Positions 4,359 to 57,109 of a stretch of 64,000 bases of DNA are shown piece by piece. The stretch is from Dictyostelium discoideum (Eukaryota): contig CM000153.2 in assembly GCA_000004695.1 (NCBI GenBank), positions 1,152,001-1,216,000 of the forward strand. The letters are read 5' to 3'. Every line of letters begins with the position of its first letter. Positions within the stretch are counted from its first letter, which is position 1. The position numbers and the translations under genes were made by a program. The notes under the pieces were generated by a model that was given only the letters and a program-made list of their open reading frames with translations, was not told the DNA's origin and did no database searches.

Positions 4359-4444
<86 letters not shown>

Positions 4445-6750
4445 GTTTACATTATTATTATTTAAAGAATTTAAACTCTTATTTGAAGGTTCTTTTTGTA
4501 AAACTGGGATTGAAGTTTTCCCACTTCCTTTTTGTTTTAAACTATTATGACCACCTATTGTTACACTAGGATTTAAATGGTCCCCGTATGATAGTGCACC
4601 ACTAAGTGATACTGGCTGGGTTATTGATAAGTGAGTTTTTTCACTTGAAGTTCTTAAATACATATCTACATTGGTATTGCTACCTAAATTATTATTATTA
4701 TTATTATTATTGTTATTGTTATTATTATTATTAGTGTTATTAATATTATTATTAGTTAAATTATTTTGATTTGTGTACAAATGGAGATTACCACTAGATT
4801 GATAATAAGCTCCAAGGTTTTGATTTGATGCTGGTGTTGTTGTGGTAGTAGTTGTTGTTGTTGTTATATTTATATTGTTGTTATTGTTATTGTTATTGTT
4901 ATTATTATTAGTATTATTATCAGATTCCAATTCAAATTTAGTAGTTAATCTTGAATTCTTTGATAATGAAGATGGTGAAGATGATGCTGTAACTTTTAAA
5001 TTCTTTTCAAAATGTTCATGAAGGAATAAATCATTGGTTGGTGAATGTTGATCATCATCTGATGGTGGATGAAAGAAATCGTTGGTTAGTATTGAAGATC
5101 CTCTTTCTTTGTTATTTGATACACCAGAGGTTGAAGCTGATGCAGAGGAATTACTTAGTGATGGTGAATGAATTTGATGAGTCGATATGATTTTTCCAGG
5201 TGCAGTGAGTGGTGCAGATGAAGAACGTGTGTGATTAGTGTATGGTGAACCACTGCCACCACTTCCCAAAAGATTACCTTGACTAGATTCTTTATTCAAT
5301 AGCTCATTTGAACTATCCAATGAGGATTTTGAATTTAAGGTTGCATTTGCTAGGATTGGTGGTAATGGTGGTGGTGTTAAACCTAATTTAATCATATATT
5401 CATCTCTTTCCGTTACCAATTGAGAAATCATATCCTTCATTACCTTCTTCTCTTTCATTGCACGTAAAAAATGTAATTTCAATCTTTTGATTGTCTCTGT
5501 CATTTCTTTCTTTTGTGACTCCAATTGTTGAATACGATCATGGTCGCTGCCATTATTACTATTGGTTGTATCATCATCTGACTCTACATCATAACCTTCA
5601 GCATAAGTGTTGATTGATAGTTTCGACCCACTTCCACTAGATTTAATTCTTGATGGTTCAGGTGATGATGCTGGTTGTGATTGAGATGGTTCATGAATGT
5701 GCTGTTTTATCCATGGATGCTCTAAAAGTTGTGATGCTGTTGGTCTTTTATTTATATCTCTAACAAAACATGCCAATAAAAAGTGTTTTAAGTCTGCTGA
5801 TATATTATTTGGAATTGGTGGATGTGGATTATTAACCATTGCAAACATTGCTGGCATTGTTCCTAAATCCCAATATGGTGGATTACCCGTTAACATCTCT
5901 AATAATGTACAACCTAATGACCAAATATCACATGCTGTACTTCTTGCATTCATATCCATTTGTATAACTTCTGGTGCCACTATAAAATATATTAAAAAGA
6001 AAAAAATAAAAAAAAAAACATTATTAATATTTGACACAATCTATTTTCACTACAAGTCAATTAATATTATTTTTTTTAAAAAAAATAAACATACTCCAAA
6101 ATGGTGTACCAACAACTGTTAATTTTCTATCGATCGCTGAATAAGTACATGAACCAAAATCTGCTAATTTAATTACACCTTCTTTTGTTATGAGAATATT
6201 ATCGCTTTTTATGTCTCTATGAATTACACCTTTCTCATGAAGATATGCTAAACCTTTTAAAACTTGACTAAAGTATCTCGAGAGTAATGGTTCTTGAAAA
6301 CAACCATATCTCTTGGCAATCTTTGCCAATGATCCACCCTCTATAAATTCCAATGCAAAATAAAGATATCTTGAGGTTTCGTATGATTCTATAAACTTTA
6401 CAATGTTTGGATGTTGAAGTGTTTGCAATAATTTTATCTCTTGAATGATTGATGGTAATTGTTTCTCTGATATTATGGTTTTTTCAATCTGTTTAATTGC
6501 ACAGAAATCACCTGTTTCTGCATTTAATGCTTTAAAAACTTTACCAAATGCACCTTTACCAACAGCTTCTCCAATTTGCTAAAAATAAAAATAAAAAAAA
6601 ATTTAAATTTTAATTTTGATTTTGTTTTTTTTTTTTTTTTTTATTTTTTTAATAAAATAACTTTAGTATATTTCCATTGTATTTAAAACTATAAATATTA
6701 GTAATACATACATATTTACTAAAAGAGTCCGTTTCTTTTATTGTGTCCAT
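3677..6750 (-). CDS. Ser/Thr protein kinase, Cdc7(S. pombe)/Cdc15/septase-like, with long poly-N/S C-terminal extension; CDS join(6750..6712,6578..6095,5979..3677)
   Basis: Exon 1 is [13 protein letters not shown] with a GTATGT donor at 6711. Exon 2 follows a TTTTAG acceptor and reads [31 protein letters not shown]...HPNIVKF...[27 protein letters not shown]...VVGTPFW, ending at a GTATGT donor. Exon 3 follows TTATAG (ending 5980) and reads MAPEVIQ...[22 protein letters not shown]...HPWI, then about 600 aa of N/S/T-rich low complexity ending at 3677. Kinase subdomains I-XI are present. The best resemblance is to S. pombe Cdc7 / S. cerevisiae Cdc15 (GKGAFGxVY, HPNIVKY, [13 protein letters not shown], G(S/T)PYWMAPEVIE). 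This may be the Dictyostelium septase; the symbol is not asserted. About 941 aa. Confidence 0.8.
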
Positions 6751-8699: not shown

Positions 8700-11137
8700 A
8701 TGAATAAAGATAATAGTATTAATAAAAATAATGTAAACAATGATAATAATAATAATATCAATAATAATGTAATTAAAAAATTAAAAGAAGAAGTATCATT
8801 AAAGGTTAGATCATCAGTTGTAATAGTTTCATTGGAACAAGCTATTGAAGAGATAATATTTAATTCAATAGACGCAAGAGCAACAGTAATATCTATTTCA
8901 ATAAATTTATCGAATCTATCATTCGAGGTAAAAGATAATGGATTTGGATTGTCATATGAAAATTTAAAATTTGTTGGAGATCGTAATTGTACTTCAAAGA
9001 TCAACTCACTCTCTGATCTTAAATCATTAAAAACATTTGGATATCGTGGCGAATCATTAGCAAGTTTATCAAATATATCATCATTAGATATAATTTCAAA
9101 TTCATTTGGTTCAACCATTCAAAAATCAATTTCATTTGGCAAAGTTGACCAATTTAAAATTTTAGATAATAATAATAGTAGTAGTTGTGATAATAATAAT
9201 AATAATGTTAATAATAATAATATTAATAATAATAATAATAATTCAATAGCTAATGGCACAATTGTAAAGATTAGAGATTTATTTAAAAATTATCCTGTAA
9301 GAAGACAAGGTTTATATCATCCAAATTTAAAACTAATAATTAAAAAGAGAATTGAAATCATAGCTTTATCATTCCCAAAGATTGTATTCTCAGTTTATGA
9401 TGAAACAAAGAGTTTAACTATACTAAAAACACCAAAAGATACATCATTTCTTTCTTATTTCAAACATTTCTACGGTCAAGAGATGATGAATAAATTAGAA
9501 TACGTAACCTCTGAAAATTATAATAATACCACCAACAATAATAGTAGTTCTTACTATTTATCTGGTTATCTTTCTTCACCTCATAAAAAAGGTCATCCAA
9601 ATAAATCTTTTCAATATATTTGTAAGTTTTTTTTTTTTCTTGAACAATGAAAAAAAAAAAAAAAGAATTAATATTAATAATCAATTAATATATATATAAA
9701 AAGATTTAAATAATAGAATAGTTTTAAATACAAAATTACACAGACATGTTAATCAATTATATCAAAAGTATAGATTATTTAATGCAACCAGAAAAGCAAA
9801 CGCAAATGTATCAAAAATTGCAAAAAAAGAGGTGATTGATAGTAATCCAATATTCATACTATTTTTAAGATGCTCACAATTAGAATATGAACGTTCTTAT
9901 GAACCTTCTTCAAAAACATTTTTAGAATTTAATGATTGGAAGAAACCTTTGGCTGAAATTCAAAATGTTTTAACAAAATTTTTAACAAAACATAGATCTG
10001 ATGATGGTGGAAATTCAAGAGGTAAATCAATAACTACAACAGCACTACCATCATCTCAACCAAATAATTATGATGGAAAATCAACATCAACATCAACAAC
10101 AACAACAACAACAGCAGGTGATATTTCAATATTTGAAGATGATGATTTATCAAATGTTGTTCAAGACACCCAAGAAGATGATGGTGATGGCTTTGATATG
10201 GGATATAGCAGTAGTATCGATGAAGATGAAATAATGAGTTCTCAAAATGTTCGTGGTACAAGTGTTGACCAAGATAATAATATATATGAAAATGAAGATC
10301 ACCAAGGAATGCAAATTGGTTTTGATGATTTAGATAATAACCAAATCGATAGTAGTGAGGATGAGGAACATTTAAAAAGATTAAAAGAAATAGAAGAGGA
10401 AAAACAATACATTAATGATATTTTACCAGACTCTTTCTTTATGAATGATAAAAATGCAACAACAACTACCACAACAACAACAACAACAGGTACACCAACT
10501 AAAACAACAACAACTACAAATAATTCTATATCACCATTTAAAACAATCAAGAACATCTTCACAACAAACATCACCATTCAAATCTATAGTATCACCTTTA
10601 CAAATTTCTCCACCAAAAACAACTCTTTCGCAAAGTCAAATACAGAAATCATCACCTCTTAAACTATCAAATGTAAATAATCAAATAATTGACCAATCAC
10701 CACAATCTTCTTATGATGAATCAATAGAAGTTACACAACAACCATCTACTTTACCATTGTCTCCAATTCCTTCACCTCGTATTCATAGAAATATTCCACA
10801 CAATAAAAAAGATGATACTGCTTCCACATTACAAACAACAGATCCTTACGAGAGTTCGTCAAGGGATGTAACAGATTCTCGATCATCAGCGGATTCAGAT
10901 GCAACCATTTTAGATGATAGCCCACCTCCAAGACCACCAATATTCAATTTCCCACAAACTAAAAATTCAATACCCACAGATGAAAATCACTTTCATTCAA
11001 ACATAGAAGATCAAGAGGAAGAAAGAAGTGAAGATACAACCACAATGACTCCAACATCTAAATTAAACATATCATCCCAAACACCACCTACACTTCCACC
11101 AACTACCATTCCACATATCACAAATAACTCAACCCAA

Positions 11138-11214
<77 letters not shown>

Positions 11215-13945
11215 TAATAATAATGAAAATAAAGATTTGGTTCCATTTGTTAAAGTGGAACAAAATAATGATAAGCAATTAGCAATATATAAAAATGAAT
11301 CAGACGATGATGATGAGGAAGAAGATAATAATAATGATGATAAAGAAAAAAGAAAATACCAATTAAAAGTTTCAACATTTAGAGAAGTAATTGATGTCGA
11401 CCAAATGGATGTAACAACAATTACTACAACAACTACAACTATTAAAAGTGTAAAAACAGTTACTACAAAAACTTTATCACCATTTAGCAAGGCTGCACTG
11501 GCATCAGATGCTTTAAAAAAGAATCAATATAAGGTAAAGACAGAACATCCAATATTAATTAAAGAGGAAGATTATAAAGAATTAGACTCTTTGAAAAATA
11601 CCTCCAATAATGATCAACTAAATGATTCTTCATTATTTAGTAATTCATGTCTTGATATTGTTCCATTTGAAATTAGTGATGATGAAGCAGATGAAGACGA
11701 TGACAATTTAACAGGTTTAAATGGGCAAAAATTATTATTTTTAGAAGATGGTAAACCAACAAATAATGGTAATAGTAATAATACTCTTGCAGCAGCAGCA
11801 ACAACAACAACAACAACAACTACTACTACTACTACTACTTCACCTTTTCAAAGTAGTCCACCATCTTCACCATTATCACAACCAATTAAATCTATAATCT
11901 CTCAACAAACAACACCTCCAAAAAATGTAAGAAAAAATGATATTTTTGATGAAGATGAAAAATCAAACACATTATCATCACCAATTAAAAAGTTAAAGAC
12001 TGAAAATGACATTCAAAATAATATTGCTGACAGTAATGGTAATAAAAACAAAAACACTACAACCGATAATATTGAAATAATAGTTTTGGATGATAGTGAT
12101 GAAGATTTACCTCAAAATGAACAAACAACGTCAAAATATTTTAAATCAAATGAACAATTATCATCAACAGAGTCAACAAAATCAAAACTAAATCAAATTA
12201 TTTGTAAATTAGAAAAAGAATCGTCACAATCACAACAACTAACAATACCAATAACATCAACAACCTCAACCTCGGACTTAGCACCAACCTCAACCTCGAA
12301 CTCAGCATCAACCTCAACACCAACTATCCAAACTATAAAGACAACGTCAAACCCACTTACAATTCCTGAAATATCATTCTTGAGAAAACCAACGGCTAAT
12401 GAAGAAAAGAAATCTTTATTCAGTGATTCTGAATTATCAACCACTGAAAGTGAGGGATCCTATAATGAAGGTTTTATTTTGTCATCATCATCATCATTAT
12501 TAAAGAAAAGAGTTTTATTTAACATGGAAGGCAATCAATACTATTCACCACCTCAAATTCAAAATAACTCCTCCAGTGACCAAGATGAAGAGTATAATGC
12601 TAGTCTAACTTCACCACCACCATCACCAAAACAACAATACCAAAATCACTATGAACAAAATGAAAAAGGAAATCTTTTTATTAAAGAAGAAAAAGAAAAA
12701 GAAAAAGAAAAAGAAAAAGAAAAAGAAAAAGAAAAAGAAAAAGAATTAGAAAAAGAAAAAGAATTAGAAAAAGAATTAGAAAAAGAAAAAGAATTGGAAA
12801 AAGAAAAAGAATTAAAAAAGAAAAATGATGACGAGGTACAACAAGTACAAGAAAAAGAACATGATGACCATTGTTGTCCAACTCATAACATTGGTGATCA
12901 TTTAACACTTAGTGGTATTGGTAATATTAAAGAACATCAAGACGATGAATCTCTTGGAGATGATGATGAAGAAAAAGAATTTATTCATGATTCTGATTAT
13001 AGTAAAATTGAATTGGCGAAAAAATATAATTATACTGATGATAGAATTAGTCCATTCTTTGATAAAAGTATTAAACCTGGTGTTGAAATGAAAGATATCA
13101 ATATTAATGTTAGTGGTTTTATTAAAGAAGTTCTATCTCAAAAATGTACAGAGGTAATACCAAAGGAAATGTTACAAAACTTTAAATTTATCACTCAATG
13201 GGATAACAAGTTTTTAATTTGCGAAGCAGATGGTATTGTATTGATTTTAGATCAACATGCCGTTTCAGAAAGAATCAAATTGGAAATATTAGAAAGAAAG
13301 TATTTTGGTGAGAATAAATTCGACCTTTGTCCAATGCCAGAGAGAACAAGATGGTCATTAACAGAGTATGAATTGGAACTAATGAGAATCTATACAAAAC
13401 CATTGGAACAATGGGGATTCAAATGGACATTCAATAAAACTTCAATAAACATTTCACAAGTACCAATGTTTTGTTTAGTAGGTTTGGGTGTAAACGATCT
13501 CAGAGAATTTCTTTATCAATTAGAAAGTAGTAAAGGAGCAACTTCAAATAGACCTCCTGCTGCTCATAGAATTTTAGCTTCAAAAGCATGTAGAAGTATG
13601 TATCAATTTTAAAAATTAGTAGTATTAGTTTTATTGAATTTTTCAACACATTAATATTAACTTTTTTTTTTTTTTATAAAAACTAAAAAAAATAGCTGCA
13701 ATTAAATTTGGTAATAAACTTTCAAGAGAGATTTGTATAAAACTATTAGAAGATTTAAATGAATGTAATATTCCATTTCAGTGTGCTCAGTGAGTATTTC
13801 TTTTTTTATTTTATTTTGATTTTTATTTATTATCTCATTATAAATTTACTAATTATTATTAATTTTATTTTTTAGTGGAAGACCAAGTATAATCCCTTTA
13901 ATTAATTATGGTAAACTCTTTAGTTCAGTAAAAGGTTTATATTAA
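8700..13945 (+). CDS. mlh3: DNA mismatch repair protein MutL homologue MLH3; CDS approx join(8700..9621,9797..~10489,~10590..13595,13696..13789,13876..13945) with an unresolved frame break near 10445-10660
   Basis: The N-terminal GHKL ATPase region reads IKKLKEEVSLKVRSSVVIVSLEQAIEEIIFNSIDARAT...VKDNGFGLSYENL...TSKI...TFGYRGESLASLS and matches MLH3 (VIDNGFGM, YGFRGEALA). The C-terminus carries the MutL endonuclease motif DQHAVSERIKLE. After two short 3' introns (GTATGT at 13596, GTGAGT at 13790) the protein ends SKACR-TAIKFGNKL...CNIPFQCAHGRPSIIPL, matching the MLH3-specific AIKFGD...PFQCAHGRPSM. A very long S/T/N/Q/E-rich linker includes an (EK)n tract. The first-intron acceptor was chosen as the first phase-compatible AG (9796), which is uncertain. 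The ORF frame switches between 9832..10662 and 10445..13612; see findings. Confidence 0.75.
12686..12830 (+). repeat. (GAAAAA)n / GAATTAGAAAAA-type hexamer array inside mlh3 CDS encoding (EK)n-ELEKEKELEK
   Basis: The direct tandem gaaaaa gaaaaa ... is visible and translates to KEEKEKEKEKEKEKEKEKELEKEKELEKELEKEKELEKEKELKKK in the mlh3 frame. Confidence 0.8.
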
Positions 13946-26220: not shown

Positions 26221-27642
<1,422 letters not shown>

Positions 27643-28564: not shown

Positions 28565-29635
28565 ATGACAAATCAATCGAATTGCCAAAATTGTGATTGT
28601 AAAACATTTGACCCCAACCCTTTTAAACCATTATACTGTTCAATATGTCTCCATAATCATAAAGTGAAGAATGCAAATGTTTCAGTGAATGCGACATCAA
28701 CATCAACATCGGCAGCACCACCAAAATCAAGCTCCACTAATAATAAAGGCGCAACAATTAGTGGTTCACCATCAACATCATCATCCTCTTTAAATCAACA
28801 ACAAAAGAGTAAACCATTACCACCAAAAACTCCTTCAAAATCACCATCAAGTCCAAATTTAACTTCTTCTTCTCCTTCTTCTTCTTCAAGTGGTGGGGGT
28901 GGTGGCAGTGGTGGTAGTACAGCAGTAAAAAAGAGACCAGATGCTCAAAACTTTTCAAAACAATCCTCTTCATCCTCATCATCATCATCATCATCATCAT
29001 CATCAAGTCCTTCAGCAACATCACCAAAAACTTCATCAGGTTCATCATCATCATCCAAATCATCAGGATCATCATTTATGAGTAAAATTGGATCATTTAA
29101 AGATGCAGTAACAGATAAAGTAAATACATTAAAAGAGAGTACTTTTTCATCTTCGTCGTCATCATCTAGTGAACCAGAGGTTAAAGGATATGAAATTTCA
29201 GGGCCAACCGATTATAAACATAATACTCATATTGGTATTACAGAGAATGGTGGTATTTCAACTAGAAATATTCCAGAAGAATGGAAACAAACTTTCCAAA
29301 AAGTTGATCAAGCATTAAAACAAAATGGTAAAAGAGGTATTACAAAGAAAGAAGCAACATTCATTTTAAACGCTGTATTAAGTGGTCAAACACCAAGTCC
29401 AAATGTTTCATTAAGAACTACACCAGTTGCAACCTCTGCAAATGCACCTGCTTTACCACCAAAACCAAATGCTAATAATAAACCATTACCATCTGCTCCA
29501 AAAACTATACCATCGGCATCACCATCAATTTCTTCAACTACTACTACCACTACTTCAACCTCATCCTATAATAGTAGTGTAAAATCTACACCATCATCAT
29601 CTGTATCATCATCTGTATCATCATATTCATCTTCT

Positions 29636-29680
<45 letters not shown>

Positions 29681-31282
29681 TATAATAAGAATACAACTTC
29701 ATCATCATATAATAATGGTGAAATTGAAAAATTAAGAGATAAAATTAAACAATTAGAAAATAAATTAGCAAATGAAGAAAAAGAACATAATTTATTATTA
29801 ACTAAATATAAAACATTAGAATCGAAATATACTGGTGGAGAAACCAATCAAAATCAAGCAGTTAATGAAGCAAAAACTGCTAAAACCAAATTGGAACAAT
29901 TAGAACGTGAACATAGTTCATTATTGAATAAGATAAAGGTATTGGAGACTAATAATCAATTGGTTCAAAATGAGAATAAGAATCAAGAGAATGAATTATC
30001 AAATTTAAAGAAATCCATATTAGATTCTAAAAAGAATATGGATGCCGATAAGGGACCATTGATTGAAAAGATTTCAACATTGGAGTCGAAATTAAAGGAT
30101 TCCGAATTTGAAAAGAGATCAATTCAATCAAAGGACCAAGAACTTGAGAAAAAGCTAAAGGAACTAACTAACCAATCCAAAGAATCTGAACAACAATCAT
30201 TTGAATACCAAGTGAAGATTAAAGAATTATCAAGTCAATTGGACTCCCTAAAAGAGGCATTGTCAAATAATAAAGATTTGTCATCAAAGATTCAAGAGAT
30301 TTCAAATCAATTCCAACAAAAAGAAAAGGAGTTGAAAGAAAGCTATGAGAAACAGTACAACCAAAGATTGAATAACCAAAAGCTTGAAATTGATCAACTC
30401 TCTAGCACCCTCTCAAAGGAACAACAGAAATCGAATAAATTTGAAATGGAATTAACCTCTAAGCAAAGGGACTTTGAATCAACTCAAAAACAAAGAGACG
30501 AATTTAAATTGCAATTTAGTAAATCTCAATCTCAATCCGATCAATTACAATCAACAATCGATCAATTGGAGAATCAACTTAAACAAATTAAACTCTCACA
30601 AGCTCAATCTCAAAATATTTTAGATTCTAATAATAAACAACAATCGGATCAATTGAAATCATTATCTGATTCAAATAATAAATTAATTAAAAAGAATGAA
30701 GAATTAGAATCGATCATTGATAAATCAAGAAAGGATTCAATTGATATCAAAGGTAATTATGAACAAAAGATTGTTGAATTAGAATCTAAAATTAAAATCT
30801 CTCAAAATGAATCAAATAATCAACATGATCAAAAATTATTTGATCTTCAAAATAAATTTAAATCTGAAAAAGATGATTTATTATTAAAAATTAAACAATT
30901 ACAAGATCAATTATCAACAACAACAACAACAACAACAAAACATCAATCACATTCTTCTTCTTCTTCAGCTGTTCCTGCTGCTACTACTACCTCTACTTCT
31001 ACTCCATCATCACCACCACCTCCACCACCTGTTGCACCACCACCTCCACCATCTTCATTCAAACAACCTTCATCAGATACTTCTAGAAATAATTTATTGG
31101 AATCAATTCGTCAACCAAAAGAATTGAAAAAAGTTACTGAAGCTGATATGACTCACAATAATCAACAAGAAGATGATGGCTCAATGGTAAATATATTAGT
31201 TAGAGCTCTCATTGATAGAAGACAAAATATGAATGAAGACGATTACGATGATGAAGATGAGGAAGTTGCTTGGGATGATTAA
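28565..31282 (+). CDS. CRIB-domain, coiled-coil, proline-rich, WH2-central-acidic (VCA) protein; WASP-family-like nucleation-promoting factor lacking a WH1/EVH1 domain; single exon
   Basis: It is an uninterrupted 905-codon ORF. The N-terminus is Cys/His-rich (CQNCDCKTF...YCSICLHNH) and is followed by S-rich low complexity. A CRIB/PBD consensus is present (EISGPTDYKHNTHIGITENGG, ISxPxxFxHxxHVG). About 400 aa of heptad-like coiled coil follows (KLANEEKEHNLLLTKYKTLESK...). Then come poly-Pro (SSPPPPPPVAPPPPPS), a WH2 motif (RNNLLESIRQPKELKKV), a central/connector-like helix (GSMVNILVRALIDRRQNM) and an acidic tail with Trp (DDYDDEDEEVAWDD*). Confidence 0.8.
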
Positions 31283-31399: not shown

Positions 31400-31577
31400 T
31401 TAAACAAAAAATTTAAAATAAAATGCTACCATTAAAACTAAAACTGAAATTATAATAATTAAATATGAATTATTAGTTTGTTTTGTTTGTTGCTGTGATG
31501 TTGATTTTGTTAGATTGGATTGAGTATCTTTATTTTCTTTAATTTCATTATTTTCTTTTTTATTTGATAGTTTACTA

Positions 31578-31636
<59 letters not shown>

Positions 31637-32878
31637 TTTTGAAGATTCAATTGAATTGATTTTTGGAGAAGTAATTTGTAATAAATCATTAATTATTTTA
31701 TAACAATCATCAATTGTTCCATTTGAAGATAAATAATCACAAATTGATATTTTATTTGATAACCATTGGATATTCACTCTTCTTGGTAATTCTAAAATTG
31801 GTGATTCTTTTGAAAGTTTTATATTATCTTGATCATTATCATTATTATTATTATTACTTGAAATTTCATTAAATAATAAATCAAATCTTGATTCTACTGA
31901 TTTAATGATATCTTTTTTAATAAATTTAAATGCAGTTTTAATTTGTTCAAGTTGATGAATATAAGCAATACAATGAGTATTGTTATTATTATTAAAATTA
32001 AATTCAAGTGATGAAGTTGAAATTGAATCTAATTGATTTATTAATAAATCAATATTTAATTTTGATTTTGATTTAAATTGTTGTGATATTATTTCATTAC
32101 CACTAACAAATTCATTTTCAATTAATAGAGTCGATTCTTTAAATAATTGATTTTCAAAAATTTCTATAATATCTTTTTTAAGATTTTCAAATGATATCAT
32201 TCCATTTTTAGATTTTAATTTTATATCAATTGGTAAAATACAATGTAATGATAAAAATTCATTTTCTAAATTATTAATAACTTTAATTTCTGTTGATTTT
32301 AATCTATACTAATGATATTGTTAATAAAAAAATTATAATTATTAGTATTGGTATGGAGTGGGTGTTGTTAAAAAGAAATTATAATATTTTATTTTTTTTT
32401 TTTTTTTTTTACTTACTAGCTGAGTTGAATTTGTTGCTTTACCATTAATTAAACCAGTTTTTTTAGAATATGAAATGAATTGAAGTGATTTGGAGTTTAT
32501 AATTGTATGAATTGATTTTAAGAGTTTCATTATGAATGATTCATTATTTTTTTCATTTAAAGTATCTGAATCTGGTATAATCATATAAATACCAACTATA
32601 TCAATTCCACCATACAACATTATATTAACTTGATGACAATACTCTAATATCCATTCTTTATCAATTGATGAAATTGAATCAATATTAATTGGTTTATTAT
32701 TATTATCATCATCTGTATTACTAATATTTAATGGTGTTGGAAATAATCCTAAAACAAAAGTTTGTTGTTCACTAATTTCACTTTCTTGACCAATTAATAA
32801 ACCAATTTCAATATGTGATTGCTCTAATTTGTTTGATCTTTCTTCAAGTGTGATCTTAATATTTGAATTTATAATCAT
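31400..32878 (-). CDS. ODR-4-like tail-anchored membrane protein; CDS join(32878..32417,32308..31400)
   Basis: Exon 1 reads MIINSNIKITLEER...IGLLIGQESEISEQQTFVLGLFPTP...KEWILEYCHQVNIMLYGGIDIVGIYMII...INGKATNSTQL and ends at a GTAAGT donor at 32416. Exon 2 follows CATTAG (32309) and reads YRLKSTEIKV...MISFENLKK...LELPRRVNIQWLSNKISICDYLSSNGTIDDC...poly-N...NNSYLIIIISVLVLMVAFYFKFFV*, a C-terminal TM tail anchor. Motifs GLLIGQ, EWxxEHxxQVxxMLxGG and VLPxRVxxxLxxxxxxCDY parallel human ODR4. About 456 aa. Confidence 0.6.
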
Positions 32879-44004: not shown

Positions 44005-45356
44005 AATAATTAAATAAAATTACACAACAATTAAAAAAAATACTAATTATTCTTTTTTTTATTTTTTTATTTATTAGGACAATATTTGAAAATGACCTTA
44101 ATATAATTCGTTGTGGTTCAACAATATCAGAATTATGTACAAGTTTTAAATTTAATTCTTGTTTGAATATTATTATTCATGAAACTGTAAATACAAATAT
44201 TGTAACACCAAAAGTTTTACAAAATCCAAACAATAAAGTATTCACAGAGAATGATAATGCTGGACCTTCTTTTATTATCGCATATTATGAAGGACCAAAT
44301 TGTAAACCATTAGAGAAACAACAATTTCATGATTCTTTTTTAAATTTAATTAAAATGTTATCTGTAAGTATTTTATTTTATTTAATTTTATTTTTAATTT
44401 TCAAAACTATATTTGATATTAACTTTTTTAAAATATTTAATTAATTCATTTCCATTTTCATTTTCATTTTCTTTTAATTTTTATTTTTGGAAAAAAAAAA
44501 AAAAAGAAAAAAATAAAAATTAAAAAAGTATTCAACTTTTGTCAACAATATAAACAAGATCAATTATTTGAACAACATTTAAAAAAATATTCATTTAAAT
44601 CATCATTTTTTAATAAAAATCAAAATCAAAATCAACATTGTGAAAATAATATTTCAGATATTATTAATAGAATTGGTGATAAAGAATCAATTGTATTTAA
44701 TTCTCCCAATTCTTATGATTCAATCAGTTTTTCATTATTATCAAATATTGTTGATGTTAAACCATTATTAAAACATGGTAGTATTTTTGTTTATAAAAAG
44801 AATTATAAAGATTTAATTTATGTTTTATTAGAAGAACCAATTTCAAAATCATCTTCTGCAATTCAAAAAATTAAATCAAATTTATTATTTCAATATATTT
44901 ATATATTTTTAACTGTTTGTATCATCTTCCTTTTAAATAATAATAATAATAATAATTATTTAAAATAGTTTATTAACATATATATTTTTTTTCCTTTTCT
45001 TTTTTTTTATTCTTATTCACCAATAGGAAAGTAATAAATTTAATATTGAAGTTATTAAACTAACATCACAATTACAAGTTAATTCATTAGAAGAGATAAT
45101 TTCATCAAATTCATATCATGACGGATACCATTCAATTCAATCACCTGGTGGATTTAGTTTATCAAATAGTTCAATGGGAGGTTGTAGAAGAATATTTAGA
45201 GGTTCTTCATGTTTTTCCGTACCATTGATCTCACCATCTTTATCTCTTAAATCTTCAACTGAAAATTCACCAAATTTAAAGAAACGTGTTTCACCTCATT
45301 CCTATTCACCAATAGTTTCCAAAAATTCAATAAATAATAATAATAATAATAATAAT

Positions 45357-45398
<42 letters not shown>

Positions 45399-46139
45399 GG
45401 AAATAGTATAAATGAAAATAATGAAAATAATAATAATAATGAAGAATACACTTTAACATCACCATCGGCAATTAGTAATATTAATTTAGAAACATTATCA
45501 TCAAATCGACTATCACCAGCTATTTCTTTAAAATCATCTAGATCTTCAAATTATATGTTTACATTACCATTAAGTCCAACAAGTAATACAATTGAGCATG
45601 TTAAAGATAACCAAGGAAATGAAATTACAAAGATTAATCAAGTATCATATATTGAACCTCACATAATGTTTAAAGCATTCCAAGAATTTAATGAAAGAAA
45701 GATTAATTGGTTATTAGTTGGATATGAAGGTAAAAATATGAAATTGGTTGGTAAAGGTGTTAATGGTTTACCAGAATTAAAACAACAATTAAATGAATCA
45801 AAAGCTTATTTCGGTGTTGTTGGTATAACTTTCTCTGATTCAAGAAATTTTGGAAATAATACAAATACACTAACCTATAAAGGACTTTTTATAGAATGGT
45901 TAGGTAATAATTCATGTACAAGAGAAAGGGCAATGATTGGCAGTCATTCACCTGCTGTCACTTTATTATTTAAACAAAAATCAGCAATTCATTGTGATTT
46001 AAGATGTGATGATATTGATGATTTATCAGAAGATTATGTACTTCAAAAAGTTACAAGTTTTAGACAAGAAATTCAATTCAAAAAAGTTGTCAACTCATTA
46101 ACAACAAGTTCAAATAATTTAATTGAAACTGTTATTTAA
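43917..46139 (+). CDS. ADF-H (actin-depolymerising-factor homology; coactosin/drebrin-like) domain protein with N-terminal region of unknown function; exons 43917..43969, 44078..44363, 44507..(3' boundary unresolved, <=44957), 45027..46139
   Basis: Exon 1 is MNSLSQGKFISLIKKNK with a GTAATT donor in phase 2. Exon 2 follows TTATTAG and reads W/TIFENDLNIIRCGSTISELC...KPLEKQQFHDSFLNLIKMLS with a GTAAGT donor at 44364. An open coding-like frame runs 44507..44957 (KKIKIKKVFNFCQQYK...IGDKESIVFNSPNSYDSISFSLLSNIVDVKPLLKHGSIFVYKKNYKDLIYVLLEEPISK...), but its donor could not be fixed. The last exon follows CAATAG (45026) and reads ESNKFNIEVIKL...poly-N...KINQVSYIEPHIMFKAFQEFNERKINWLLVGYEGKNMKLVGKGVNGLPELKQQLNESKAYFGVVGITF...*, the ADF-H consensus (xWxLxxYEG..xxLxxxGxG.GlxELxxxLxxxKvxYgxvRv). 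Confidence 0.6.
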
Positions 46140-46221: not shown

Positions 46222-48727
46222 TTATTGAATGATAGAATCAGAATTTGAATCACTACTTTCAGATTCAGAATCTGAATTTTCAATAACTTCATCTTTTTCA
46301 ACTACAACAATGTTTTCTTCTTCTAAAATTGGAGATAGTGTTATCATCATATTATGATATTGTCTTGGTGACATTGGTTCTTCAACTCGTGGTGTAGCTA
46401 ATGAATTAATTGAACGTGGTGTTAAAATTCCATCAGTACGTGGAGTATTTAAATCATTTGTACGTGGAGTACTTAAATCATTTGTACGTGGAGTTATTAA
46501 ATCATTTGTACGAGGAGTTGTTAAATCATTTGTACGAGGAGTTGTTAAATCATTTGTACGAGGAGTTGCAGTTAAAGTACGAGGAGTTGGATTTGGTTGT
46601 TCACTTGATTCTGTATAAGTTGGTTGTTCACTTGGTTCTGTATAAGTTGGATCATCATTATAAGTCATTTCATTTGCAGCTTCAGAATTTGGTTGAACTG
46701 ATTCAATAAAAGTAAAAACATCCATACATTCAATGGTATCACCTTTTGAGGAGGAGGATGATTGTTTACTTTCTTCATCATCATCAGTAAAGTCATAAAG
46801 GAAAAGGTTGACTCTTTTTGGAGCATTTTTAGAACTCTTTTTAGAAATTGAATCTAAATTTGTTGGGTCATTAGTTGTTGAAGATTTATTTTTTCTTTTA
46901 GAAGTTGATGATGAAGATTGTCTAAATATTTCATTTGAACCTTCAGCACCATAAATTTTTAAAGCCCAGAATTTTGGAATGAACATTATTGTAATTATAG
47001 CCGCAACGATGAATATAAAACCTGAGCAAAGTATTTCAGTATTGTGACCAGTTTTTGAAATGGTTAGAGGTGCAATTATTAAAAGACAAAATACAATAGA
47101 ATATAAACTGTAGGCAACTGATTTGGATTCATTAAATTCTTCAATATCGACTATTCTAATTTTCCAAGATACAAAAATACCAATCATTACAATTATTGCA
47201 AAATAACCTAATAAAAAGTATAACGCAATTAAACCACCATCCATCATTTCACATTGTATTTCATATGATGAAAACTTTTCATCATTAGGGAAAACTTTAA
47301 ATGGTGTTAATTTTCCAAGACCTGTAATCAATGATAATAGGAAAACATTTAATAAAAACATTCCAAGTACCCATGGAAGTAATTGAAGATTGGTGATTTT
47401 AATATGATAAAGTTTTGGATTATCAAAAATTAACCAAATTCTAAAATTCTTTACCACAATACCACCAATCATCGTTGTAAGACCTAATGAAATTAACCAA
47501 AATTTTGCATTACATGTGAATACATTTACACCACTAACCCAAATAATTACTCCAATATATACAAATATCCCTCCAATCACTATAAATATTAAAAAAGTTG
47601 GACTTGCTGATTTAAATGATGGTTTATTTTTATATTTAATAATACAAATTTGTATTATAATTAATGCACCAATTAAAATACTTGAAACTATTGTTATACC
47701 ATATTCAATTGTTTTTGAAATTGGTTTCTTTTTATTTTTTAAAAAATTTATTATTAATAAATTATTATTATTGTTTATTATTATAATTAAAATTATTATT
47801 ATTGTTTTTTACTTACAAATAATATATAACCACTTATAATACCTAAATCAATTATACTTTCATTATTTAATTGATTTGTTAAAATTATATTTGTATCATT
47901 TAAAATTTGATTTTCTATCATTGATAAATTTGAATTAATATTATTAATTATTAAATTTGAAATTGATGGGTTAAAAATTAAATTAATATTAAATTGTGAA
48001 TTGGTTGATTCGTTATTATTTGTATTATTATTATTATTTGTATTTGTATTATTAATTAAATTCGAAATTATTGGTAAAATATATAAAGTTAAATTATAAA
48101 CTGAATTAAATAAAACATGATCTTTATTTAATGGTGGTGAAATTAAGAAACCATTGGAACCAATAATTTTTATATTTTGTTTTAAAAGTATATTACAAAA
48201 TGTTAAATATTCATTATTTTCAAATGATGATGAAATTAAATCAACACCATTCTTTAATAATGATGATACTGATAATTCAATAATTTCTTGAAATGGGAAA
48301 TTATTATTTGAAGCATTTTTAAAATCATAATCAATGGTGTAAAACATTAATTTAACCATTGGATTCGATAATCTTGCTCCAAAATAAAATGTATCCAATA
48401 GTGTTTGATCTTGGATTTTATTGGTTTTTAAATATCCTATTATATTCGTTTCACTAATTAATCCAGAAATATATCCACTTAAAAGTGTTGAAATTTTGAA
48501 TGGGTAGTTTATTTCATAAAATTTATTATTATTATTATTATTATTGTTTGTATTACTGATTATATTATCATTTATTATTATTGTTGTTAAATTGTTAAAT
48601 GTTTTCGATATATTATTCGCATTTTCAGAAAATATTGATTTATAAAATATTATTAAATCGATTTTCTCTTCAATAATTATATTATATAGTATATCATTTT
48701 TATTATTTATATTATTACTATTATTAC

Positions 48728-48817
<90 letters not shown>

Positions 48818-49079
48818 TACTATTACTATTATTTAAATTATAAAATTTAATATTATTATTTGGTATTCCAAGATCTAAAGTAATTTTAATTAAATCTTGC
48901 TCAAACATATAGTTTAAACCAAATTTATTTAAATTGTCTAAATACCCATCTACAATTCCTAAAATTTTAAAATCTATAGGATTTAATGAATTTATTATAT
49001 TTATAATATTTAATAAAATAAAAATTAAAAAAAATTTATTTATTTTATTTTTACTATTTATTTTATGGGTGTATAATTT

Positions 49080-49082
<3 letters not shown>
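46222..49082 (-). CDS. family-3 (metabotropic glutamate/GABA-B-like) G-protein-coupled receptor: signal peptide, Venus-flytrap/ANF-receptor-like ectodomain, 7TM, Thr-Pro repeat tail; CDS join(49082..47817,47727..46222)
   Basis: Exon 1 reads MKLYTHKINSKNKINKFFLIFILLNIINIINS, a signal peptide, followed by a roughly 400-aa ligand-binding-domain-like region ending ...GIISGYILF at a GTAAGT donor (47816). Exon 2 follows AAAAAG (47728) and reads KPISKTIEYGITIVSSILIGALIIIQICIIKYKNKPSF...IVIGGIFVYIGVIIWVSG...MFLLNVFLLSLITGL...GLIALYFLLGYFAIIVMIGIFVSW...YSIVFCLLIIAPL...GFIFIVAAIITIMFIPKFWALK (7 TM helices). A cytoplasmic tail follows with 6-7x TPRTNDL repeats and an acidic Ser-rich end. About 924 aa. 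The topology matches the Dictyostelium Grl (GABA-B-like) receptor family; the individual member was not identified. Confidence 0.75.
46437..46560. repeat. 21-nt tandem repeat x6 (aaatcatttgtacgWggagtWNtt) in GPCR 3' coding region, encoding TPRTNDL heptad repeats on the minus strand
   Basis: Direct repeats are visible on the plus strand (gtacgtggagtatttaaatcatttgtacgtggagtacttaaatcattt...). They translate to LTATPRTNDLTTPRTNDLTTPRTNDLITPRTNDLSTPRTNDLNTPRTDGILTPR. Confidence 0.85.
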
Positions 49083-52397: not shown

Positions 52398-55300
52398 TTA
52401 TTTTTTATTTGATTTAACAGATTTATATAATTTTAATAAATATTCATTTGAATCTTTGTTATTTAATAAAACATTTTTTAAGAGACCTTCATCATCAAAG
52501 AATTCCATTTCATCTTGGAATTCTTTTAATTCATTTTCGAAACAATTTAATAATTCTTTAACATCTACCTGAATCTTTGTACAATTTGTTGATAAATGAT
52601 TTTTAGTTTCTTGAATCCAATTTTCTTCGGTACATGAGGATGGTTTAATGATTGAATGGAATTTTGATAACAAAGAGAAGAATATTAACCAAGGACGAGT
52701 GATATCGAAAAGTTTATCTTTTGATGGTTCATCTGGAGAACTTAAACCATTCTTTGTATTAGTGGTGAGATAATCAACAAAAGCATAAGCCAATAGTTTT
52801 GTGAGGTAATTGAATTTTTGATTTTCAAATTCTTTTGGTGAATGTAAAAAGATTGAAACCACTAAAAAGTATGGTACATTATCGGATAGCATTTGATACA
52901 TTGAAGTGATTGCAGTTTCCAATGGTAAAGTTGTGAATTGTGCTAAAGTCTTTTCAAATTGTGGACGTCTTAATTGATTGGCAGAGTTACCTCCAACCAA
53001 CTTTTGATCCAATAAAAACATACCAAGTTGGACAAACATTGGTGCAATTCTAATATTACTTTCTTTGCCACCACCTTTAGAATCGGTACTGAAAGATTCA
53101 TCCTTTGCCAAACGAATCAATAAGAATTTGAGATCATGAGAGAGTATACGGAATTTTGGTCCTTCGACACGAGAGATATTGTTGAGATTAACCCAGAATT
53201 TATCAGAGTAGGGAGTGAATGCATCACTATTCATCTTTGGTGGAAGTACAGGGAAAAGACCATTACATTTGGTTTGTTGATTTCTGAGTGCAGCACCTTC
53301 CCATTCTTCTTTTGGTACCTTCATACTTCTATCTGCTTTGGTTGCATCACGATGACAATTGAAATGAATGAAATTGAAATGAGTTACTGTAGTGAAACCA
53401 TAATATAAAGCACCACCACCACCACCTCCACTACTACTTGGGGAGAGAGAAAGTGAAGCAGCGACATTGGTTGTTGATGATGGTGGACAAGTTGTTTCAC
53501 CCACTGATGTTAATGGAATTCTCTTTGAGAAGGTATAGATACCTAATACATCGGTTGGTTTAAATGAATAACCTTCTCTACAAACCATACAAGTGAAACC
53601 TTCATCATCATCCAAATCTTCAATTGAACCTGGAACAACGTTTGCCATAATATGTTTACCTTGTTGAGCTAAACCCAATTGTTTCAACACATCTTCTCTA
53701 TGTTTTTGAGCATGACTTAATTTTTCCATCTTCGATTCCTTACGAGTATCACTTACAATCTTTGAGGTTTTTTCATTGCCTTCAGCGATTGACTCTAATA
53801 AATTCTCAGCTAAACTTCCAATCTTTGCACTAGTACCAGCTGTTTCTTCAAGTATATGAATTCTTTTGATAAGGTTAGATTCTAGAGTCATATTTTGAGT
53901 TGGTTCATGACCCATTGCTAAACCTTTTAATAATACTAAAACGAATGGTAAAGCTGGTTTCTCCAAAGAGGAAAGCCATTCTTGGCTAGTCTTATCACCA
54001 TTTTCAGGGAAGTAATTTAATAAGTAATCAACCAATGATTTAGTGATACCACGCTTAATAATGATTGAACGAATACTTCTACCATTTGAATCTGGACGAG
54101 TATTTTCCATAAGTTTGGTAAAGAAATCAAGATGATAAACATGATTGGTATCTTTTGATTTTGAATCATCAAACTCTTGGAAATTTAAATATGGTGTGAA
54201 AAAGTCAACGAGATAATCCATAATTTCAGTGTGACCATAGGTAAGGAATGGAATAATTCTTGTGATTGCTTGAATGATCTTTGGATTTGACATTACTTGA
54301 GCACCGTTTAATTTATCTAAAAACATATTCATTTGTTCTTGAGCTTCATTGATATCTTTATGATGTGAGAGTGAGGTAGAAGAATTTGAACCACGAAGAT
54401 AATCACGATTTGCTTCGCTAACTACCGATTCAATGATGACCAATAAATGTTCGGAAAGTTCTGGTTGATGGAAAGCTTGTTTTAATTTCTCCAATAATCT
54501 ACCAACAGTATTGAGTGTAAGTAATTTTTGACGATTAATTTTAATCTTACAACAATGGTAGAGTAATTTAATTACTAATTGTGCCAATTCCTTCTCGATT
54601 GAGAAATCATTGATACGTTCAATCATTGAGATCATTGATTCCAAACCACCGCATTCAGCCATAACACTTGTGATTTCATATTCAACTTCTGGATCCTTTT
54701 CTTCAGAGTTATTATCATTAAGAGTTTCAATGATTTCTTCAGTTGCTTCACCATCTAAACCTTGAAGACGATAAACTACATTCATTGGAATATTGATATC
54801 TGCTGTTCTTAATGCTTGTGGACTCTTTTTCCATACTAATTCGTAAACTTTTTTAATTGGTAAATCCAATTTAATGATCTTATTATCGACTAATAACTCC
54901 ATACCATTATCATCATCTAAGAAACTACCTAAATCTAAAGCTTTACAAATCTTATTCTTTACATCTCTCATGAGTGGACCACCAAAGGTATTGGAAGTAT
55001 ATGGGTTACGATTCATTGAACCTCTAATGTATTCCTCTTGAGATGCAGCTTTAAAGAGTATCAATTGATAGATTGGATCTGGTTTGGTTGGACAAACAAT
55101 ATTACAAAGTTGTTCGAAAATAAATATTGGAGTTCTACCATCCGATTGATATTTAGCCAATGCTTTAATATTAGCAGCCATAAACTTCTTATTGTCTTGA
55201 ACAGATTCATTGTTTAGTGATTTCATCAACTCTTGGAGATAACGTACAGAATCCTCGGTTAACTTATTCTTTTGAACGATAACACCACGAAGTGATAAGA

Positions 55301-57073
55301 AAGCATCCAATACCTTTTCTAACATATTATCTTTCTTCATCTTTGCTTTAAGAGTTGGTACATCGAGGAATGATTTAAGTATAGCAACTAAAGTTTTCAA
55401 AACAAAACCTTGTGAAACATCAGTACTAAATGAACCTTCCTTTGATTTGATATGTTCAATCTCCTTGATGATAGCATCACAAATGAATGGAATGAAACCT
55501 TTTACAGCTAAATAAATCTTACGATCTTGAGAGGTTGAGATAAAACTATTGAAAAGTCCGAAAAACTCTGCAGAATATTCACCTGCCTCTGTTGCATTTG
55601 GAAGAATCTTTGTAAGGAGATCCAAGAATTTAAGTGATCTACTATTGCTATTCTTACTTAAAATACCCATCAAAGTGATTATTTCAAGACGAATTGATGA
55701 TGTTGAATTGAATAACAATTTCTCTAACCATTTCTCTTCAAACAATACCTCGAAACTTGATTGAGTTGCATAACCAATACCTGAAGATTGTTGTTGTTGT
55801 TGTTGTTTTCTCTTTTTAACTTGAGCATACCATCTCTTGAAATATTTACTCTTTAATTCATCTTGGCTAAGTGGTTTCAAAGATTTTGATATTTCACCGA
55901 TTGAAGAGTTTACATTGAAATTAGATAAATAGTTTTCATATTTTGATGACCAAGCATTTGCAATTGGATTATCATCACCATCCCATGATTCGTTAGCACC
56001 TGCATTTGAAGTATCATTATCAAAGATTGATAATATGTTTGGATCTTGAGATGAAGATATTGAACCACTACCACTAACACTACTACCACTACTACTTCCA
56101 CTACCACCACCACCATTTTCGCTACCAGTAGCACCAACACCAGATGGAGATGATGAGGAAGAAGATGGTGATAAAATCTTTAAACCTGAAACAGATTCAT
56201 TCAATTGTTGTTGCTGTTGTTGAATTTGTTGTTGAATTTGTTGTTGTTGTAAAGCGATTTGTTGTTGAATTTGTAATTGCATTTGTTGTGGTGAAAGTAA
56301 TGATGATGCAACAGAAAGTGCAATATTATTCACAGTATTTGGTGAAAGTAATGATGATAATGCTTCAATCTTCTTTTCAATGGTTGAGGTTAATGAAGCA
56401 TTAGCTGCTGTTGCTGTTGCTGTTGCTGTTGCAGCCAAAGCAATGGCTTGTTTCTTTGATGATTTTAATTTTTCAAATCTTGTTGCTAATAATTTTTGAG
56501 AGATTTCAAGATCTTTTGCATCCTTTGTAATGAAAGCACCTTTACGATCAAGAGTACATAAATAAATTATGATTTTGAGACATGGTAAAATAATATACTC
56601 TGAAACCACTGGACTTTGAGAGCCACTTGATAAAGCTTTAAAGAATAACTCCATTATGAATGATAATCTTTGTGGCCAAATATTATCAGAGAGTGAGGAA
56701 CATTCTTTCAACAATGAGATTTCACTTGAGACCATGTTTGGAACATCCAATGATGAATAATAACAAAGTGTGTAGTAAATCTTGTCTTTAATCCATTGAT
56801 TAACCATTGAAGTACAATCAATATTTGATTTGGTAAGATAGGATAATGATGATTTAGCCCAACCCTTTGCAATACTCTTTCCATGATGAATATTATTAAA
56901 GAATATTTCTTTTGGTAAACCTTTTTCAATCAAAAGATTCTTAATTGGTGTTAACTCTGAATTTCTACAGAAGGAATTTAATAAACATAAAACCTGTTCA
57001 ATGTATGAATTTGAACAACCATAACATTTATTTTCTTCACGTAAATGAATTGAAACAGGACATTGTCTGGATG

Positions 57074-57109
<36 letters not shown>

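Follow-up and report, generated by a model that had tools for sequence, protein, structure and literature searches.

Gene structure and identity

The window, meaning the whole stretch of 64,000 nucleotides of Dictyostelium discoideum DNA that was analyzed, contains a complete single-exon gene on the forward strand whose features are listed in Table 1. Its reading frame of 905 codons opens with ATG and runs without interruption to a TAA-type stop codon, and the closest in-frame stop upstream of the ATG is 12 codons away. Orthologs of the 905-residue protein are colinear with it and begin at the same Met, which supports the reading as one exon and agrees with the first-pass annotation, where a single 905-codon exon had been described.

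Table 1. Coordinates of the gene and of the features of its product. Positions are those of the window; residues are numbered from the initiator Met.
Feature	Residues	Position	Strand	Basis
Complete single-exon gene, 905 codons plus stop; product D. discoideum WAWH_A		28565..31282	+	ORF listing
N-terminal Cys/His module, CQNCDCKTFDPNPFKPLYCSICLHNH, CxxCxC-x12-CxxCxHxH	7-32	28583..28660	+	Conservation, weak profile matches
Ser-rich low-complexity linker, 41% Ser, including a TCA trinucleotide repeat	36-205	28670..29179	+	Composition
GTPase-binding domain (GBD): CRIB, beta-hairpin, two helices	210-272	29192..29380	+	Pfam PBD, hhalign, AF2
CRIB motif, ISGPTDYKHNTHIG	211-224	29195-29236	+	Pfam PBD
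Pro/Ser/Thr/Asn-rich disordered linker, including a poly-Asn tract	273-383	29381..29713	+	Composition
Long coiled-coil region	384-786	29714..30922	+	Heptad contrast, AF2 helices
Proline-rich region (…SSPPPPPPVAPPPPPS), polyPro at 815-829	804-830	30974..31054	+	Read from sequence
WH2 (V) motif, core LLESIRQPKELKKV (844-857)	838-861	31076..31147	+	Pfam WH2, ortholog profile
C (connector) helix SMVNILVRALIDRRQN and acidic tail MNEDDYDDEDEEVAWDD with Trp903	873-888 and 889-905	31181..31279	+	Conservation, profile, AF2

That annotation had also called for a comparison with the Dictyostelium WASP-family proteins. Residue for residue (905 of 905), the translated ORF is the same as DdWAWH_A_fl, which is part of the supplementary alignment (Additional file 1) of Kollmar, Lbik & Enge 2012, who defined the WAWH ("WASP without WH1") family (PMC3298513). 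The gene is therefore not new: positions 28565..31282 encode the already published DdWAWH_A, a type-II WAWH. Exact matches to the protein and to five neighboring products were absent from a collection of 15 billion proteins. A scan for bacterial promoters and terminators, which is irrelevant to a eukaryotic gene, gave nothing beyond shuffles.

Low-complexity tracts (poly-Ser, poly-Asn, poly-Thr, and poly-Pro) make up about half of the protein, a composition that could be taken to indicate a pseudogene or an open frame that arose by chance in such DNA. This interpretation is refuted by the probability of finding 905 stop-free codons at the composition of the window (77% A+T), which is about 1e-38, by comparisons with shuffles of the same protein, where the CRIB regular expression matched 0 and the WH2 regular expression 3 of 20000, and by the presence of full-length colinear orthologs in many Amoebozoa. 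Moreover, both WH1-less WASP genes of D. discoideum have already been GFP-tagged and knocked out (reviewed in PMC8305917), and we assign an artifact a negligible probability.

The homologs were collected by an exhaustive HMMER search, whereas a word-indexed search yielded only two because low-complexity words swamped the candidates. The precomputed annotation of both homologs includes PF24161, which was not recovered in our Pfam scans. The whole architecture also occurs in Synstelium, Clastostelium, Mastigamoeba, Mastigella, and Thecamoeba, as well as in four further dictyostelids in the alignment of PMC3298513, and relatives are present in transcriptomes of Archamoebae, Protosporangiida, and Discosea. 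The type-II WAWH architecture is spread across Amoebozoa.

N-terminal module and GTPase-binding domain

In the N-terminal Cys/His module, all 13 orthologs compared share C7, C10, C12, N18, F20, C25, C28, and H30, and H32 is almost invariant. The top PDB match of the module profile is the zinc ribbon of ribosomal protein eS31/S27a, a weak match at E=0.023, and there is a similarly weak Pfam match to zf_Tbcl_2 (E about 1e-3), which falls under the cut-off. AlphaFold2 (AF2) modeling with 9 sequences gives pLDDT values of 76-83 over residues 10-30. The 300-residue N-terminal AF2 model is largely disordered, and a Foldseek comparison of it with the PDB accordingly gave no match better than E=0.6. 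On the strength of its conservation and of these weak matches, the module is a probable zinc ribbon and may bind zinc. The Ser-rich linker that follows has AF2 pLDDT values below 50 and includes tandem repeats at 28970-29075.

The Pfam PBD model matches residues 210-254 with E=5.6e-7 and 30.2 bits, exceeding the gathering cut-off of 21.3. When the GBD profile is compared with the PDB, it finds the CRIBs of PAK1, N-WASP, and WASP (E=4e-4 to 3e-3) in alignments that end right after the CRIB. The hhalign comparison with the GBDs of type-I WAWH and WASP/N-WASP covers 65 columns and reaches into the post-CRIB helices with a probability of 99.3% (E=2e-20), and AF2 places a hairpin at residues 222-234 and helices at 238-253 and 261-272 with pLDDT of 70-82. 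The sequence after the CRIB (IPEEW…) is PAK-like at least as much as it is WASP-like, and this, together with the PDB alignments ending after the CRIB, means that an autoinhibitory domain of the WASP type is not established. The residues preceding the CRIB are SSSSSSSSEPEVKGYE, and no basic region is found there. The CRIB resembles that of PAK1, but a PAK-family kinase was rejected as Pfam detects no kinase domain. The second linker, between the GBD and the coiled coil, contains an AAT-type repeat at 29637-29693 and has AF2 pLDDT below 50 across residues 273-383.

Coiled coil, proline-rich region, and VCA

In the coiled-coil region, the contrast between heptad a/d and other positions across residues 401-795 exceeds that of shuffles with z=8.5, there is one Pro in approximately 400 residues, and AF2 predicts helices at 384-423, 429-566, and 573-786 with pLDDT of 75-86. 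Weak Pfam matches to Filament and Tropomyosin are found in the same region.

The proline-rich region is a probable binding site for profilin or SH3 domains. P814, P817-819, P821, and P825-829 do not vary among three homologs, and the underlying DNA contains a CCA-type repeat at 31011-31051.

The WH2 motif scores slightly short of the Pfam gathering cut-off (E=1.4e-3, 18.7 bits versus 23.1), and the ortholog profile matches the WH2 repeats of N-WASP (3m3n_W) with E=3.4e-15. It agrees with the pattern given for WH2 in PMC3298513 except for the linker, which has 4 residues compared with x10 in the paper. In the C and acidic segments, L878, A881-R885, and W903 are invariant both in a three-way alignment and in an alignment of six orthologs, the latter adding R886 and M889, and AF2 places a helix at 874-887. 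A profile of the six orthologous C-termini aligns across V, C, and A with the VCA of N-WASP (6uhc_H, an Arp2/3-bound entry) at E=2.1e-10 and with the VCA of WAVE1 at E=1.3e-4.

The WH2 segment also matches the WH2 repeats of Spire (3mn7_S), with E=0.01 for the single sequence and E=8.8e-7 for the profile, and the combination of oligomerization, polyPro, and WH2 recalls the logic of VASP. One could therefore imagine a protein that does not act through Arp2/3 at all, but serves as a coiled-coil oligomeric scaffold for monomer delivery or filament elongation by means of its WH2 and poly-proline segments, in the way of Ena/VASP or of Spire and other WH2 nucleators. We consider this quite improbable, as the alignment of the profile with N-WASP and WAVE1 continues past the WH2 into their C helix and acidic tail, neither the terminal Trp nor the LxxALIDRR helix varies, and only a single WH2 is present whereas tandem-WH2 nucleators require several.

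Relationship to known nucleation-promoting factors

By definition, the N-terminus of a type-II WAWH carries two CxxC motifs, which are followed by a Ser-rich region, a GBD, and a long coiled coil; a proline-rich region and a VCA complete the protein (PMC3298513). The present protein agrees with this definition and with the published DdWAWH_A throughout, including a GBD without a preceding basic region: the CxxC motifs are C7xxC10 and C25xxC28, the Ser-rich region occupies residues 36-205, the coiled coil separates the GBD from the proline-rich region, and the latter is followed by the VCA (WH2, central helix, and acidic tail with Trp) characteristic of the WASP family. Pfam searches found no WH1, SCAR/WAVE, or WHAMM/JMY domain in the protein, even at E<=10; the authors of PMC3298513 also sought a WH1 domain and found none.

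The first-pass annotation had described an unusual architecture in which WH1/EVH1 and Scar-homology domains are missing and a Zn-ribbon-like, Cys/His-rich N-terminus is combined with a canonical CRIB, a coiled coil of about 400 residues, polyPro, and a WH2-C-A module. Every one of these features is borne out by the data above. The architecture is not novel, however, since type-II WAWHs were defined by it in the literature. What our analysis adds to the description of DdWAWH_A is the five-Cys/two-His module with its weak likeness to eS31/S27a, the AF2 helix boundaries within 384-786, and the relatives in Archamoebae, Protosporangiida, and Discosea.

WASP and N-WASP (wasA in Dictyostelium) share with this protein a CRIB/GBD, a proline-rich region, and a VCA in identical order. 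The 905-residue protein differs in having neither a WH1/EVH1 domain nor a basic region before the CRIB and in possessing one WH2 compared to two in N-WASP, while WASP has neither the zinc-ribbon-like head nor the 400-residue coiled coil. The type-I WAWH of the same organism (DdWAWH_B), a member of the same published family, is likewise WH1-less and contains CRIB/GBD, proline-rich region, and VCA, but its N-terminus is a short basic stretch immediately before the CRIB, it lacks both the Cys/His head and the coiled coil, and its post-CRIB helix (GIKKKDLKNPETVQFIYSII) is more WASP-like.

WHAMM and JMY, class-I nucleation-promoting factors (NPFs) confined to metazoan-side lineages, likewise have a long coiled coil in their center, with a proline-rich region and a VCA behind it. 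[quoted passage not shown] Membership in this group was rejected because the present protein contains a CRIB and no WMD. A SCAR/WAVE assignment was rejected because no WHD is detected (Pfam, E<=10).

Assignment to wasB or wasC

D. discoideum has two WH1-less WASP-related genes that contain a GBD and a WCA, namely wasB (WASP-B, Q7KWP7) and wasC (WASP-C, Q54QH4) (Veltman & Insall 2010, as summarized in PMC8305917). Because there are only two such genes, the 905-residue protein must be the product of one or the other. The same 64-kb window contains a giant gene for a UBR4-type E3. We take this gene to be DDB_G0283893 on chromosome 4, adjoining the Q54Q… accession block, whereas Q7KWP7 (wasB) is presumably a chromosome 2 accession. 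On account of these chromosomal neighbors, the gene is probably wasC. WASP-B and WASP-C are both located at clathrin puncta; WASP-B binds active RacC, Rac1B, RacA, and RacB, and WASP-C has been implicated in control of the actin cytoskeleton, in adhesion of cells to the substratum, and in phagocytosis (PMC8305917).

Proposed mechanism

The literature assigns a Rac-regulated role in promoting Arp2/3 nucleation to this family. The profile matches described above lend support to a reading of the present protein as an Arp2/3 activator that lacks WH1 and is regulated by Rac. In the mechanism we propose, the CRIB/GBD would bind GTP-loaded Rac and the protein would thereby be recruited; by analogy with WASP, Rac binding may also free an autoinhibitory contact between the GBD and the C helix. 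The WH2 of the VCA would then recruit an actin monomer, the C helix and the acidic tail with its Trp would engage Arp2/3 so that a branch can start, and the poly-proline stretch probably supplies profilin-actin or docks SH3 proteins. The coiled coil of about 400 residues most likely makes the protein a constitutive dimer or higher oligomer, which would offer two VCAs per Arp2/3 complex, an arrangement reportedly found by Padrick et al. in 2008 and 2011 to raise both affinity and potency. The zinc-ribbon-like module would replace WH1 as a head for targeting or partner binding. Rac binding by the GBD, autoinhibition, dimerization, zinc binding, and Arp2/3 activation are properties that we only infer.

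WASP-B is described as having "an attenuating role" in actin polymerization, which fits awkwardly with a simple activator, and wasB-null cells form extra lateral and rear pseudopods and exhibit increased and mislocalized RacC activity (PMC8305917). These observations would suit a protein that acts mainly as a brake, where the coiled-coil scaffold captures active Rac via the CRIB and removes or sequesters it, the role of the VCA is minor or local (endocytic), and the net effect on F-actin is negative, in parallel to the proposed restriction of active Rac by WASP. Jeon & Jeon are said to have observed in 2020 that wasC-null cells contain more, not less, F-actin (~1.5-fold), a result in favor of a brake and likewise awkward for a simple activator. 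On the other hand, the C helix and the acidic tail with its Trp are among the best-conserved parts of the protein across Amoebozoa, which argues for a selected Arp2/3-binding function, and the roles of brake and activator can coexist. We regard a predominantly inhibitory protein as a serious but rather unlikely alternative. The overall interpretation, in which the locus is the DdWAWH_A gene, its product is a type-II WAWH among the WASP-family NPFs, the gene is wasB or wasC (probably the latter), and the protein works by the activating mechanism proposed here, has in our estimate a probability of about 0.85.

Implications

Publications of 2010-2012 already described the gene, its architecture, and its family, and the present results carry little weight as a discovery. 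We speculate that the Cys/His module could be a zinc ribbon like that of eS31/S27a, present throughout Amoebozoa and taking over from WH1 in targeting, for example to clathrin-coated pits, and that the coiled coil could make this protein the sole constitutively dimeric NPF of the WASP family; both notions are tentative, and the odds are somewhat against them. If the protein is indeed a constitutive dimer, Rac would switch a pre-assembled unit with two VCAs. Type-II WAWHs can be viewed as a natural experiment in NPF design, where the CRIB and VCA of WASP were kept, WH1 was swapped for a tiny Cys/His module, and an oligomerization rod was inserted. The potency conferred by the rod, compared with the two-VCA potency known from artificially dimerized WASP, and the identity of the partners of the head would be informative about the ways in which Arp2/3 activators in general are directed to their sites and adjusted in activity.

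Identity of the gene

The 905-codon single exon proposed in the first-pass annotation is an uninterrupted reading frame, and all motifs quoted there sit at their reported positions in the translation. With a 0.092 probability that any given codon is a stop, the chance of an ORF of at least 905 codons is ~1e-38. The ORF ranks fourth in the window by stop-to-stop frame length, and its nearest upstream in-frame stop lies 12 codons 5' of the ATG. The window is 77% A+T, with G+C down to ~10% in intergenic stretches. The coding sequence contains four in-frame trinucleotide repeats typical of D. discoideum genes (see Table), which are likely to show length polymorphism from strain to strain.

The translation is identical at 905 of 905 residues to the degapped sequence DdWAWH_A_fl in the supplementary alignment (WAWH.fas) of Kollmar, Lbik & Enge 2012, who defined the WASP subfamily WAWH, "WASP without WH1 domain" (PMC3298513). 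The gene is therefore the published type-II WAWH, and the window is D. discoideum DNA. The alignment also contains orthologues with the labels Dif, Dcp, Ppp and Ays (PMC3298513), all of which share with WAWH_A the N-terminal Cys/His module (head), the CRIB, the C helix MVNILV[KR]ALIDRR and the …WDD end. The second D. discoideum protein, the type-I DdWAWH_B, is in the alignment too; it is shorter, has a basic stretch before the CRIB, and lacks both head and coiled coil. The architecture that had been called unusual is real but not novel: the genes were named in 2010, and the exact sequence and architecture were published in 2012 (PMC3298513). A look-up of the exact protein sequence in a large protein collection found no match.

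The gene is probably wasC, because the giant UBR4-type E3 ligase gene in the same window is, we assume, DDB_G0283893 of chromosome 4, which we place near the block of Q54Q… accessions that includes wasC (Q54QH4). The wasB accession (Q7KWP7) is presumably one of chromosome 2. DDB_G0283893 is described as an unusually large gene (PMC5052037).

Domain architecture

The CRIB, the very long coiled coil, the VCA module and the absence of a WH1/EVH1 or Scar-homology domain, as initially proposed, are all borne out. For the VCA module, the final ~80 residues of six type-II orthologues were built into a profile and compared with PDB sequences. The profile matched the Arp2/3-bound N-WASP of cryo-EM entry 6uhc_H (E = 2.1e-10) in one continuous alignment spanning V, C and A (profile 6–78 vs N-WASP 424–497), as well as the N-WASP WH2 repeats (E = 3.4e-15) and the WAVE1 VCA (E = 1.3e-4). 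Given these matches, the objection that the terminal region might not align to WH2 and acidic profiles falls. The Pfam WH2 score is slightly under the gathering score (E = 1.4e-3), and the WH2 regular expression matches 3 of 20000 shuffles of the protein. WAWH_A carries an intact, conserved WASP-type VCA after a proline-rich stretch. The sequence observation is confirmed, and the predicted role as a WH1-less Arp2/3 activator is supported.

The CRIB scores over the Pfam PBD/CRIB gathering score (E = 5.6e-7), and its regular expression matched none of 20000 shuffles. A profile of seven type-II GTPase-binding domains (GBDs) matched the PAK1, N-WASP and WASP CRIBs with E = 4e-4 to 3e-3, in alignments that stop shortly past 'IPEEWKxxF', a segment that resembles PAK no less than WASP. 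Profile-profile comparison with type-I WAWH and manually entered human WASP/N-WASP GBDs gave 99.3% probability (E = 2e-20, 65 columns) and extended, with a five-residue insertion, into two post-CRIB helices. AlphaFold2 with nine sequences predicted a hairpin (222–234) and helices 238–253 and 261–272 (pLDDT 70–82). From the profile-profile match and this model we conclude that a GBD is present; a WASP-type autoinhibitory surface within it is plausible.

The central region has a heptad periodicity of z = 8.5 relative to composition-matched shuffles and a single proline across ~400 residues, and AlphaFold2 models residues 384–786 as three long helices (pLDDT 75–86). Pfam found no WH1, WAVE-homology or WHAMM/JMY domain in the protein even at E ≤ 10.

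The Cys/His-rich head was also correctly recognized, with eight positions (C7, C10, C12, N18, F20, C25, C28, H30) invariant in 13 of 13 orthologues and F15 and H32 almost so. Among PDB sequences the head profile best matches the C4 zinc ribbon of the ribosomal protein eS31/S27a (E = 0.023), and the two have the pattern C…C.G..F..N.F…YC..C in common. Pfam gave only a below-threshold zf_Tbcl_2 match ('probable treble clef zinc finger'), AlphaFold2 pLDDT is 76–83 for residues 10–30, and a structural search with the mostly disordered N-terminal model had no match. 'Zn-ribbon-like' is a fair description, and the head may bind metal.

Distribution in Amoebozoa

When 1.84 billion representatives were searched exhaustively with HMMER, 607 proteins matched at E ≤ 1e-3, 87 of them at E ≤ 1e-10. 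By a crude motif classification of the best 150 of the 607 matches, 14 have the N-terminal Cys/His motif, and 5–7 of these have the full head–CRIB–coiled-coil–WH2–acidic-Trp architecture. About eight more of the 150 lack only the head, in some cases perhaps because the model is truncated; the rest include many type-I or WASP-like matches and fragments. The complete relatives, from Synstelium polycarpum, Clastostelium recurvatum, Mastigella eilhardi, Mastigamoeba balamuthi and Thecamoeba quadrilineata, are all from Amoebozoa.

The last ~60 residues of the S. polycarpum orthologue (P0001) depart from all others directly past MVNILVRALIDR and lack the acidic-Trp tail, most likely through a 3'-end gene-model or assembly error rather than genuine loss. 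The type-II relative in M. balamuthi (P0013) has two additional CxxC…CxxC zinc-ribbon-like repeats (…CPSCSAALSAGSKFCTGCGAPI… and …CARCGAVPAKPEQKFCTACGG…, residues ~243–315) inserted between GBD and coiled coil, which Dictyostelium WAWH_A lacks.

Neighboring genes

The divergent upstream neighbor is an ATG14/Barkor homologue. Since ~920 bp of ~10% GC DNA separate the two start codons, the region between them probably serves both genes as a bidirectional promoter. The stop of the convergent ODR4-like gene lies ~117 bp from that of WAWH_A, and the 3' ends are therefore tightly packed. A second actin-binding gene, 14 kb away, encodes an ADF-H domain behind a poly-Asn/Ser-rich N-terminus starting with MGGC, a possible acylation site. 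The UBR4-type gene (Pfam E3_UbLigase_R4, E = 0; UBR4 domain; ZZ zinc finger) extends toward the window end. A marginal PBD match in the L47 ORF (E = 3.9e-4, 21.1 bits vs cut-off 21.3) is probably spurious.

Table. Features of WAWH_A and neighboring genes in the window (aa, residues of WAWH_A unless noted)
Feature	Position	Strand	Description
WAWH_A	28565..31282	+	905-codon single ORF
Cys/His motif	aa 7-32		CQNCDCKTFDPNPFKPLYCSICLHNH
CRIB	aa 211-224		ISGPTDYKHNTHIG
WH2	aa 844-857		LLESIRQPKELKKV
C helix	aa 873-888		SMVNILVRALIDRRQN
Acidic tail	C-terminal end		…DEEVAWDD
Poly-Ser repeat	28970..29075		TCA; WAWH_A coding sequence
Poly-Asn repeat	29637..29693		AAT-type; WAWH_A coding sequence
Poly-Thr repeat	30915..30946		ACA-type; WAWH_A coding sequence
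Poly-Pro repeat	31011..31051		CCA; WAWH_A coding sequence
Protein kinase	3677..6037	-	C-terminal half
Mismatch-repair homologue	10445..13612	+	MutL_C-containing, 1055-aa ORF
Mitochondrial ribosomal protein L47	25277..25982	+	two exons
ATG14/Barkor homologue	26527..27642	-	
ATG14/Barkor last exon	26527..26721	-	ATG14 C-terminus match, E=1.8e-9
ATG14/Barkor first exon	27319..27642	-	N-terminal CxxC…CxxC cysteine repeats + coiled coil, Pfam ATG14 E=1.2e-13
ODR4-like protein	31400..32878	-	two exons, Pfam E=8e-36, 1.6e-27
ADF-H ORF	45174..46139	+	321 aa; one C-terminal ADF-H/cofilin-type domain, its aa 167-292, E=7e-17
Family-3 GPCR	46222..49082	-	7tm_3, grl-type
Giant UBR4-type E3 ubiquitin ligase	52398..63569	-	ORFs of 1969 + 1599 codons

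Possible function

Arp2/3 is said to have two VCA sites and VCA dimers to be far more potent (Padrick et al., 2008 and 2011). GTP-Rac binding to the CRIB would recruit and perhaps unlock WAWH_A, and two VCAs could engage one Arp2/3 complex because the coiled coil would form a parallel dimer. The proline stretch may bring profilin-actin or SH3 adaptors, and the head could serve as an address label in place of WH1. Alternatively, WAWH_A could chiefly restrain or remove active Rac, a possibility worth taking seriously because of the null phenotypes. Jeon & Jeon in 2020 reportedly observed more F-actin in wasC-null cells. The wasB-null cells have additional pseudopods and elevated RacC activity (PMC8305917). 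Such restraint is compatible with local Arp2/3 activation in endocytosis, as has been put forward for WASP as well (PMC8305917).

The two WH1-less WASP genes of D. discoideum have already been tagged and knocked out. WASP-B and WASP-C both localize to clathrin puncta; the WASP-B GBD binds active RacC, Rac1B, RacA and RacB, and wasB-null cells have polarity defects and misregulated RacC; WASP-C is implicated in actin cytoskeleton regulation, cell-substratum adhesion and phagocytosis (PMC8305917). To this known gene and architecture our analysis makes small additions: a fuller ligand pattern of the head with a weak eS31-like zinc-ribbon likeness, boundaries for the coiled-coil helices, a PAK-like character in the segment after the CRIB, and a broader amoebozoan sampling.
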